Shown here piece after piece: positions 2,045 through 4,045 of a DNA stretch of 9,238 bases (position 1 is the first letter of the stretch; every line of letters begins with the position of its first letter). Origin of the DNA: a virus (Monodnaviria > Loebvirae > Hofneiviricota > Faserviricetes > Tubulavirales). The translations under genes and the position numbers were made by a program. Under the pieces are notes generated by a model that was not told where the DNA came from, made no database searches, and saw nothing but the letters and a program-made list of their open reading frames with translations. Where the stretch lies: the IMG/VR virus record IMGVR_UViG_2660238346_000023; one strand, 5' to 3'.

Positions 2045-4045
2045 TCAGGGACAGTTATTGTCACAAGTCCAAGGGTCGGCTCCGCCGCCCCCACCCGCCG
2101 CGCGGGAGCGCGTCGTGCGGTGGCGTGAAGCCGACGAAAGAAACAGAGATTCAAATGAGCTGCCGTTTCTGATTTCATCTGCGCGGATTTTTTCTGCGGG
2201 GGTCATACGGCGGACAACGCAGCCCATAAAACGGGTTATGACCGGAACGGGGCCAAACATGAAACCGGAAATCACCGGTGCGCAGGGTTCACCGTAACGG
2301 TTAATACGGGGCTTACCACCTTCCTGCGGCTGAACGTAAAACGGACGAAGCAGACGTTCAGAACAGAAGAAACCGCCGTTCAGCAGGATATAGGTCCGGA
2401 AATCGCCTGCATCACAGGCCATGCGGATGGCCTCCAGTTCGGCGACCTGCTGCGGCGTGAACTGCTGCATATTGATATGATGTGCTTCAAGCGGTGAACG
2501 AAAAGTACGCATCTGGCGGTAAGCCGTGACGGACGGAACGCCAAAGAACTGGAACAGGCGAAGGCGCGTTGCTTTCTGCCAGCAGGCGGCACGGCTGACG
2601 GCATCACAGAATGAACGGGCAGAATAACGGTCATTCAGGGCGGTAATACCATCCGCACTGACATCACCCGCCATTTTGGTGATGTACTTCACGATGTAAC
2701 GGAAACCATCACCCTTTTCAGGGTCAATAGCCTCAATACGAATGCGGTGCTCTTTCGCCCCCTTTTCATCCGGCTCATCGCGCATGGCCTCTTCACGGAA
2801 AATAGCGAGCACCGTTGCGCTCTCATGGGGATTGCAGTAAATCAGGAAATTCCAGTGCGTTGTACCGTCAGCATGAGGCTCGACCGTGCGCAGACCGGGT
2901 ATCTGAATACCGGCTTTATCCAGTCTGCGGCAGACCCGACGCCAGACGGTATTCAGCCAGGCGTGCGAATCCTTAACGGTCGGGCAACCTGCTTCCCACC
3001 ATTTTTTATTCGGACGAGAATGCCATTTTCCGGCAACCTTAAAACTGGTCGTCGGGTGAAAACGTGACGGCGTGGTGAGCACGATGAAGTAACCGGACAG
3101 CCCCATATCTTCGGACAGTTCACAGACGGCCTTTCCACGAACGCAGAGTTCAGCAATCCGGTTTTTCGGATTCGAAACAGAGGCGTTATGCGCATCTTCC
3201 AGCGTACAGACCAGCTCATTAAACGCATCAAAGACACCGGAGGACCGGAGATACTTTTTCACGCGTTTACTGCGGACAGCAAACAGGTCACGATGCCAGT
3301 CAGAAATATAAGGCGCGTTGCGGTTCAGTATGCCGAGCATGCGACAGACCTCATTAACCCGCTGGTCACGGACAACCCGCAGGAAACGGGTGACAAAAGC
3401 CAAATCAGTCAGACGCTTAAGCAATCCCTCATCGCCGTAACGCTCATGATAAGTGGCATAAACGGGTGCGAAATCAAAGCCGGAGATGGCCCGAAAATAG
3501 GCCATCACATTGAGAAGGTGATGCTCTGGTACATCACTATAAATGGCCCGGGAAACAAGGCAGTCACGAACAACCGAATCAGCCACCTCAGCAATCTGCT
3601 CATCAGTGCAGAAAAGCGAGAATTCATAAGGGTCTCCGTCCTGATTGAAGAAAGCAAAACGGTGCGCGGACTCAAGCGCCATCAGCGCATTTTTCACACC
3701 GAGCTGGTAAACCAGACGGCAGAAAGCATGCGCCACGGTGAACGAAAACGAGCCAAACTGTGATACCAGTCCGGCAGCCCTGCCCCTGTCAGCGAGAGAT
3801 AAATCCGTGCAGTTAATTCCGTAAATCACACGGTCAACCTGCGTGTTACGTGGCAATGCGAGCTGTGAAGATAAGGTCCCGACCTCATCACGATACTGGC
3901 GGGAAAGCGTGGCAAGGTTGCGGGAGGCAACATCGCGCTCAGTCCGAAAATGCTCGCGTTCGGGCAGCGTCAGGCAGGGACGACCAAGGGCAACGGATGC
4001 CGCGTCGATGGCGTTATACGCTGTAAGGATGGCTGATTCAGTCAC
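2045..4045 (-). CDS. Rolling-circle replication initiator (phiX174 gpA / P2 GpA-like endonuclease); ORF could extend to TTG 4144
   Basis: Three RCR motifs in the correct order: motif 1 FIVLTTP (aa 353-359 of the 699-aa ORF), motif 2 HWNFLIY (aa 430-436) and a two-tyrosine motif 3 YIVKYITK (aa 483-490, nt about 2675..2698). Likely start is GTG 4045, preceded by a GGGGGGA Shine-Dalgarno. The first 33 codons of the maximal ORF cover the operator-like repeats. Confidence 0.8.

Follow-up and report, generated by a model that had tools for sequence, protein, structure and literature searches.

A P2 gpA-family initiator in a filamentous prophage of Escherichia coli and a predicted replication origin at the 3' end of its gene

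The rep gene and its product

The stretch of DNA analysed here, the 9,238-nucleotide (nt) IMG/VR virus record IMGVR_UViG_2660238346_000023 (hereafter the window), is one unit of a filamentous (inovirus) prophage of Escherichia coli with the phage genes on the minus strand. On this strand, positions 2045..4045 hold rep, the gene for a rolling-circle replication initiator of the HUH-Y2 kind, and the last codons of rep contain an imperfect GC-rich hairpin (2135→2075) followed by an invariant 26-nt element (2074→2049), which are together predicted to form the plus-strand origin, ori(+). The open reading frame (ORF) runs 4045→2045 from a GTG start to a TGA stop and by translation encodes a protein of 666 amino acids (aa), Rep. 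The same 2001-nt coding sequence is called 'replication endonuclease' by the Prokaryotic Genome Annotation Pipeline (PGAP) in a 99%-identical prophage of E. coli strain 100416. Just upstream of the GTG at 4045 lies the sequence GGGGGG. A longer, stop-to-stop ORF opens with TTG at 4144, and a coding role for the added stretch (4144-4045) is unlikely because its direct repeats resemble operators and it looks like a promoter region. These repeats are a 16-nt unit, TGCACAAATGCAATTG, present in 2.2 copies at 4116-4150 between the divergent rep and a small plus-strand regulator gene (PHROG 2503, 4193..4381), and they are likely operator sites. Among the relatives, no conserved internal in-frame start with a Shine-Dalgarno sequence (compare phiX174 A* and Ff gene X) was found.

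A preliminary description of this DNA, made from its letters, had placed Rep among the two-tyrosine initiators of the phiX174/P2 GpA type rather than the Ff gpII type, and searches with Pfam, PHROGs and hhalign bear this out. Rep matches the Pfam family PF05840 (Phage_GPA) with E 9.1e-49 and 166.6 bits against a cut-off of 31.4 (aa 207-457, window 2675-3427, minus strand), and PHROG 91, 'nicking at origin of replication', with E 2e-128 over residues 120-666, whereas the Ff gpII family, PF05144 (Phage_CRI), gave no Pfam match at E <= 1. The only other Pfam match, PF23343 (REP_ORF2-G2P), is sub-threshold (17.4 bits, cut-off 27.8); no NCBIfam family matched Rep, and no solved structure is related to it by sequence. 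Comparison of a profile built from 23 clade members with P2 protein A by hhalign aligned aa 205-610 of Rep (2216..3433, minus strand) with residues 207-599, at a probability of 99.9%, an E of 1.7e-33 and 27% identity. While the P2 part of the assignment is strong, the direct link to phiX174 is weak, as BLASTP between Rep and phiX174 A gave a best E of 0.07 that covers only the GFxYIxKYxxK tyrosine region; judged by sequence, the two are related at the superfamily and motif level only.

Rep is an ordinary, routinely annotated member of PF05840 in a known kind of phage, and its novelty is low: both GPA-type initiators in filamentous phages and origins inside rep were previously known. A published comparison lists fs2 under Pfam05840 and places VFJ, phiLf and Cf1c in a third group sharing the VGYVAKY module, with a link to phiX174 noted (PMC4863604, Table 2). 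The Vibrio filamentous phages fs2 and VFJ (genus Saetivirus) have, like the phage in the window, two-tyrosine initiators of the PF05840 type (orf716/orf698, respectively). In a collection of phages, VFJ is the best hit to Rep (29.7% identity over 85% of the protein), and it has the same gene order, although its host and integration site differ.

The three motifs named in the preliminary description are present by translation at aa 320, 397 and 450, on the minus strand of the window, and they align column for column with those of P2 A. Motif 1, FIVLTTP (aa 320-326, 3068-3088), corresponds to FITLTAP; motif 2, HWNFLIY (aa 397-403, 2837-2857), to HWHMMLF; and motif 3, YIVKYITK (aa 450-457, 2675-2698), to YIAKYISK in P2 A and to YVAKYVNK in phiX174 A, which shares the two tyrosines and the order of HUH, then Y. 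The predicted catalytic tyrosines, Y450 (2696-2698) and Y454 (2684-2686), fall on Y450 and Y454 of P2 A, and Y450, K453, Y454 and K457 are invariant in an alignment of 27 sequences. Since the motifs begin at 320/397/450 in Rep and at 323/399/450 in P2 A (321/390/443 in VFJ), Rep shares the layout of P2 A nearly to the residue. What had been proposed as a large N-terminal extension is therefore no extension relative to P2 A; the N-terminal region is ~120 aa longer only when set against phiX174 A, whose motifs begin at 197/263/343. In the same proposal, the ~350 residues before motif 1 were too many, as there are 319 (352 is reached only from the TTG ORF at 4144), while the ~200 residues said to follow motif 3 agree with the 209 found.

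The homology with P2 A reaches beyond the motif core and leaves without counterpart the first ~120-200 residues and the disordered last ~37. The N-termini of Rep and P2 A are of the same length, the hhalign match beginning at aa 205 and 207, respectively, and have no detectable similarity over the first ~200 residues; the tblastn alignment of Rep with VFJ starts at aa 41. An AlphaFold2 model of Rep, with a predicted local distance difference test (pLDDT) score of 82 and a predicted template modelling score of 0.76, contains a confidently predicted all-helical N-terminal region (~residues 1-240), and the ~204 aa that lack detectable similarity to P2 A (3434..4045, minus strand) reach a pLDDT of ~90. 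This region is followed by a mixed α/β core, with the motifs on strands 317-324, 384-390 and 396-404 and helix 448-457, by a β-rich region (566-613), and by a poorly conserved, disordered tail (aa 630-666, 2048..2158, minus strand; pLDDT below 50), which shares its codons with the hairpin and the element. The model has the arrangement of the HUH superfamily fold, in which a central antiparallel sheet carries the HUH motif and the following helix the Y motif.

A conserved DNA element and hairpin at the 3' end of rep

The preliminary description had also suggested that the nick site might lie within rep, as in phiX174 and P2, and that a nick-site-like sequence shared with homologues should be sought there. 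A codon alignment of rep genes (protein identities of 86, 63, 62, 60, 59, 56, 56, 46 and 42%) located such a sequence by its synonymous sites. Over eight genes of 56-86% identity, mean pairwise identity at third codon positions is 0.44 for the whole gene and 0.95 for the last nine codons, with the next best 10-codon window at 0.63. This peak arises from the invariant element CCTTGGACTTGTGACAATAACTGTCC (2074→2049, minus strand), the predicted nick and recognition site of ori(+), and on this comparative evidence the putative origin is at the extreme 3' end of rep, with the hairpin at 2075-2135 beside it. Direct searches of the window with the P2 origin had given no such result: the P2 20-mer was absent at <=3 mismatches, and its 12-mer core gave chance-level hits only. 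The similarity to the P2 origin described below emerged only after the synonymous-site analysis had located the element.

Relatives with as little as 42% protein identity still have the element, which takes up three different positions with respect to the rep frame. Each of 18 further IMG/VR contigs contains a single copy of its 21-mer core, and in all 18 this copy is at the 3' end of a rep ORF (two of these ORFs being truncated or disrupted). Over the element, Salmonella L005 (46% identity) and L028 (90%) have rep in a different frame, with a TGA inside the element as the stop, while VFJ has a slightly different element, CCTTGGACTCGTGTCACTAACTGTCGCC, that contains the TAA stop of rep, also in a frame other than that of the window. 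In one Vibrio inovirus, the element begins 4 nt past the rep stop, and in four Xenorhabdus prophages (42% identity), it lies ~190-215 nt downstream of it. Because the stop and frame of rep over the element vary in this way, selection acts on the DNA of the element, and the peptide is not its target. Furthermore, whole-window blastn against twelve relatives matched the element as the only segment in every relative that gave any hit, and in the Vibrio inovirus and a P2-like phage it was the sole hit; VFJ, with its more diverged element, gave none. The disordered Rep tail encoded over the origin seems to be incidental to the DNA element and not a domain with a function of its own, and its conserved C-terminal PWTCDNNCP should be annotated as a case of DNA-level selection, not as a protein motif. 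The Xenorhabdus prophages (L006, L008, L009 and L010, ~12025-12260) carry the element together with an AT-rich hairpin downstream of rep, outside the gene.

Directly 5' of the element is the 61-nt hairpin (2135→2075, minus strand), which, folded as single-stranded DNA, has a folding energy (dG) of -28 kcal/mol and a z-score of -4.4, with none of 200 shuffled sequences folding as well. Relatives have hairpins of unrelated sequence in this position, in most lineages ending 0-6 nt before CCTTGG. As these were too divergent to align, an RNAalifold consensus on a MAFFT alignment of the hairpin region failed, and the hairpins were folded lineage by lineage. Those of the E. coli/Salmonella lineages are GC-rich (z -3.6 to -5.1), those of Xenorhabdus are AT-rich in one lineage (z -5.0) and weaker in another (z -1.9), two relatives (L018 and L019) have short hairpins of the GCGNAGC type, and P2 and P2-like phages have GC hairpins of 13-17 nt. 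Among 35 distinct 40-nt 5' flanks, 63% are in the lowest 5% of local folding energy and 80% in the lowest 10%. Double-stranded-DNA phages, whose cycle includes no packaging of single strands, have the hairpin too, so that the role common to all is most likely one in recognising the origin or in termination; an added role of the longer inovirus hairpin in complementary-strand priming or packaging is conjecture. Hairpin and element together occupy codons 637-666, within the disordered, poorly conserved tail, which fits a DNA signal overprinted on a dispensable peptide.

The element resembles the mapped origin of P2, where the nick is annotated at 29892 within gene A (GenBank) in the context GCGGCATCGCCGCG-CCTCG↓GAGTCCTGTCAATAACTGTGG. 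An ungapped alignment of CCTCGGAGTCCTGTCAATAACTGT with CCTTGGACTTGTGACAATAACTGT gives identity at 19 of 24 bases, with one reading frame common to both (PRSPVNNC in P2, PWTCDNNC in the window). In both systems, the origin is on the sense strand inside the coding sequence of an initiator homologous over aa 205-610 and with its motifs at nearly the same residue numbers, and a hairpin stands directly 5' of it. The two differ in that P2 is a tailed double-stranded-DNA phage and the window that of a filamentous single-stranded-DNA phage, in that Rep stops two codons past the element whereas P2 A runs ~140 residues further, and in the size of the hairpin (~60 nt in the window, 13 nt in P2).

This similarity extends through the family. 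On the rep-sense strand, the motif C[TC]T[TC]GG-N9-AATAAC occurs in 45 of 78 further GPA-encoding viral loci (27-33% identity, 0.51 Mb), where ~0.1 would be expected by chance as estimated from base frequencies, and on the opposite strand in none of the 78. Gene XII of PM2 and a gpA of 946 aa in E. coli phage PhiR44_2 (CCTTGGACTCGTGGCAATAACTGTCC) also contain the derived motif, and K139 contains a near match. Judged by sequence, the window has its predicted nick site where one is expected for a PF05840 initiator, on the sense strand and within or beside the gene of the initiator, and the motif is strand-specific across the family. One signature, consisting of a hairpin, CCTYGG, nine nucleotides and AATAAC, accompanies PF05840 initiators in tailed phages, in the corticovirus PM2 and in filamentous phages. 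That it travels with the initiators across these three virus groups supports an exchange across virus realms in which initiator and origin move as one module. In PM2 (L038), a GenBank 'cleavage site' in gene XII reads AAGCTTG↓CAG, and the P2-like CCTTGGAGCACTGAAAATAAC (3507-3527) is found 1.25 kb further along the same gene.

Other filamentous and single-stranded-DNA phages offer closer and more distant parallels. VFJ, like the window, has the element together with its hairpin at the 3' end of rep, although there the stop lies inside the element; the paper describing VFJ (PMC3731265) never uses the word 'origin', and no origin is described for fs2 in the literature searched. A second candidate in VFJ, CTTTGG-N9-TAATAAC in gene V (L004 position 2300), was rejected as the homologue since it has no hairpin and the true counterpart is at the rep stop. 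In phiX174, the 30-bp origin also lies inside the initiator gene and contains the words ACTTG and AATAAC, but it is in the N-terminal third of the gene, and the spacing of CTTG and AATAAC differs. The Xanthomonas phages phiLf and Cf1c are filamentous, with a phiX174-like two-tyrosine initiator and a GCGNAGC hairpin and stem-loops by a CTTG nick motif (bioRxiv 10.1101/2023.12.30.573655; PMC4863604). In phiLf, experiments placed the origin inside gII, where stem-loops adjoin a CTTG nick motif (bioRxiv 10.1101/2023.12.30.573655). Compared by description, these phages differ from the window in that their initiators form a different, much smaller family ('Pfam1446', PMC4863604) and in the position of the origin, which is close to the 5' end of their initiator gene (nt 245-365).

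Proposed mechanism, the cleaved bond and the metal site

Taken together, Rep is a P2 gpA-family HUH-Y2 initiator whose ori(+) probably overlaps the 3' end of its own gene and is cut at CCTTG↓G. By analogy with P2 and phiX174, on which each step of the following scheme is modelled, Rep would recognise an origin made up of the hairpin (2135→2075) and then CCTTGGACTTGTGACAATAACTGTCC (2074→2049). With a divalent metal held by H391, H397 and N399, and possibly E389, Y450 or Y454 would cut the plus strand, which is the minus strand of the window, at CCTTG↓G (2070/2069), leaving Rep covalently bound to the 5' phosphate. Host DNA polymerase III, together with a helicase, would then extend the 3'-OH. 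Once a round is complete, the second tyrosine would cut the regenerated site, resolving the first linkage and releasing a circular single strand, which may then be coated by the gene-V-like protein (2014→1589) or turned into the double-stranded form.

Of the two CTTG words in the element, the first is favoured, and the cut is predicted at CCTTG↓G (2070/2069), the equivalent of the P2 site, because CCT[TC]GG and AATAAC are constant while the nine spacer bases, the second CTTG included, vary by lineage, and because a 6-nt duplication in the Xenorhabdus prophage L010 restores CTCGG-N9-AATAAC. Several points weigh against this account as a whole. The strict motif is absent from 33 of the 78 distant loci, and the GenBank 'cleavage site' of PM2 is at 2253/2254, away from the P2-like motif at 3507. 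The P2 nick position is a one-base GenBank feature, so the bond is uncertain by at least 1 nt, and the second CTTG would allow a phiX174-like cut, ACTTG↓TGACAATAAC, which makes the cleaved bond ambiguous. The searchable literature yielded no experimental map of the nick, whether for this phage or for any inovirus with a GPA-type initiator. In addition, the inovirus element is always just upstream of gene V, in the expression of which it may have an additional or alternative role, and Rep has an Asn for the second HUH histidine, its activity being a prediction.

Cleavage after the second CTTG, as GGACTTG↓TGACAATAAC (2064/2063), would leave the family and the element unchanged and is the least improbable of the alternatives, though unlikely. 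It would match the cleavage of phiX174 at CAACTTG↓ATATTAATAAC, with ACTTG and AATAAC separated by 4 nt in the window and 5 nt in phiX174, and the origin of phiLf has likewise been described with a CTTG recognition sequence (bioRxiv 10.1101/2023.12.30.573655). However, the second CTTG is replaced by CTCG in Xenorhabdus, VFJ and P2-like E. coli phages, by CTAG in L019 and by TCCT in P2, whereas the first CCT[TC]GG and its 9-nt spacing to AATAAC are preserved family-wide and are what the duplication in L010 recreates. In sequence, Rep also has a much stronger match to P2 A (E 1.7e-33) than to phiX174 A (E 0.07).

It is a good deal less probable that the hairpin and element are a packaging signal, a complementary-strand origin or an mRNA element that controls gene V, with the true nick in an intergenic segment. 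Such a role would agree with the position of the element 15-60 nt upstream of the gene V start in every inovirus examined, with the packaging signal of phiLf, which adjoins the origin inside gII (bioRxiv 10.1101/2023.12.30.573655), and with the length of the inovirus hairpin (~60 nt versus 13-17 nt in P2-like phages), which suggests an added function specific to single strands. Yet the motif and its 5' hairpin are also present in double-stranded-DNA phages that have neither gene V nor single-strand packaging (P2, PhiR44_2-like phages and PM2), and in P2 the nick has been mapped to this motif. Among the intergenic segments of the window, none is conserved over all relatives, and some relatives lack any intergenic space upstream of rep.

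The predicted metal site of Rep (aa 389-403, 2837..2881, minus strand, including H397-W-N399) is unusual, and the single-His variant of motif 2 noted in the preliminary description proved to be real and fixed. EPHxDGxxHWN is found in all 37 enterobacterial clade members that have the region (40-98% identity; E. coli, Salmonella, Morganella, Providencia and Xenorhabdus). Throughout this clade, the second HUH histidine is replaced by Asn399, while E389, H391, D393 and H397 are retained and invariant. More distant relatives have EPHHDGTPHWH, except for one EPHADGTPHWH, one EPHHDATPHHH and one without the motif, and HxH is kept in every one of them that has the motif, P2-like phages included. Accordingly, P2 A has HWH and EPHH where Rep has HWN and EPHA, and VFJ has the canonical EPHHDGTPHNH. 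The joint loss of two histidines from EPHHDGTPHWH, fixed over the clade, argues for a putative working variant rather than decay. The Reps of circoviruses and nanoviruses work with HUQ. That Rep is instead an inactive or degenerate initiator, and the prophage a replication-defective remnant, is suggested by HWN in place of HWH and the change of the adjacent EPHH to EPHA, but is highly improbable given the substitution in 37 of 37 clade members with intact ORFs and other residues strongly conserved, which points to purifying selection on a working enzyme, the tandem copies of the prophage, the 2063 member sequences of its 90% cluster, and the function of the HUQ Reps.

Prophage context and implications

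The remainder of the window has the layout of an Inoviridae genome, with rep, a gene-V-like gene, small coat genes, g3, g6, g1 (Zot) and g4 (secretin) on the minus strand. Directly downstream of rep, in the position of gene V, is a gene for a 141-aa protein (2014→1589), followed by small membrane proteins and a major-coat-like gene (1638→1014). Beyond the Gly/Ser-rich g3 are g6 (8354→7995) and homologues of Zot/protein I (7978→6776; E 2e-50 to 'protein I of M13' in PHROGs) and of secretin/protein IV (5989→4781; E 5e-114 to 'protein IV of M13'). The window does not form a clean circle. Of a g3 that runs off position 1 (1-953, minus strand), it has the signal sequence, the Gly/Ser linker and the beginning of the C-domain, and a second, slightly different copy of the g3 linker and C-domain lies behind a stop codon at 9154→8354 (minus strand). 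With these two differing copies, the window looks like either a section through two tandem copies of the prophage that are not identical or a contig that is permuted or chimeric.

Among 5426 complete E. coli genomes, 29 have chromosomal prophages with a rep 95-99% identical to this one, and 40 have some match. Relatives of rep were found in Salmonella, Providencia, Morganella and Xenorhabdus, and megablast of the whole window against the GenBank phage collection gave no DNA-level match. In E. coli strain 100416, the prophage is present in tandem copies adjoining hipBA, a site inferred to be the dif site of chromosome-dimer resolution. A near-perfect hairpin of 98 nt (4632-4729, minus strand; dG -40.2 kcal/mol, z -10.7) holds dif-like XerC/XerD half-sites in its arms: one arm has AGTGCGCATAA…TTATGTTGAAA and the complement of the other AGTGCGCACAA…TTATGTATAAA, a 6-nt bulge lying between them. 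It resembles the folded single-stranded attP of CTXphi and would fit a tandem prophage beside hipBA; the full-length canonical dif site of 28 nt is absent from the window at <=9 mismatches, there being only the half-sites within the hairpin.

Between the Zot and secretin genes (6028-6762) is a repeat of 2.2 copies of a 339-bp unit (97% match, GC ~0.6), which had no Rfam match. It is 89-97% identical in relatives whose flanking genes share only 70-75%, and it is found in only 9 of 5426 E. coli genomes, yet in up to 30 places per genome. Relatives with a 59-63% identical Rep have an IS110-family (DEDD) transposase gene directly upstream of rep (L012 455-1417, L013 185-1147, L014 8919-9872 and L017 1-380), 3 nt away in L012 and L013. 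These relatives occupy other chromosomal sites, adjoining csg or mdoG genes, which suggests a switch of integration mechanism within one group of phages.

What this analysis adds is a precise, testable origin and an origin signature that accompanies PF05840 initiators in three virus groups. It is conceivable, though doubtful, that this clade has rewired the P2-type metal site and cut the protein short at its own origin, and so forms a mechanistically distinct sub-type. If this is true, the Asn variant may change the metal preference or the balance of nicking and joining, and a gene that ends on its origin may enforce cis-action, with nascent Rep loading onto the DNA molecule that encodes it. 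None of the relatives in Salmonella, Providencia, Morganella and Xenorhabdus has a characterised origin. The ~90-nt origin (2045-2135), combined with the initiator, would allow phagemids or minimal replicons to be built for these phages and would allow replication-competent prophages to be told from remnants.

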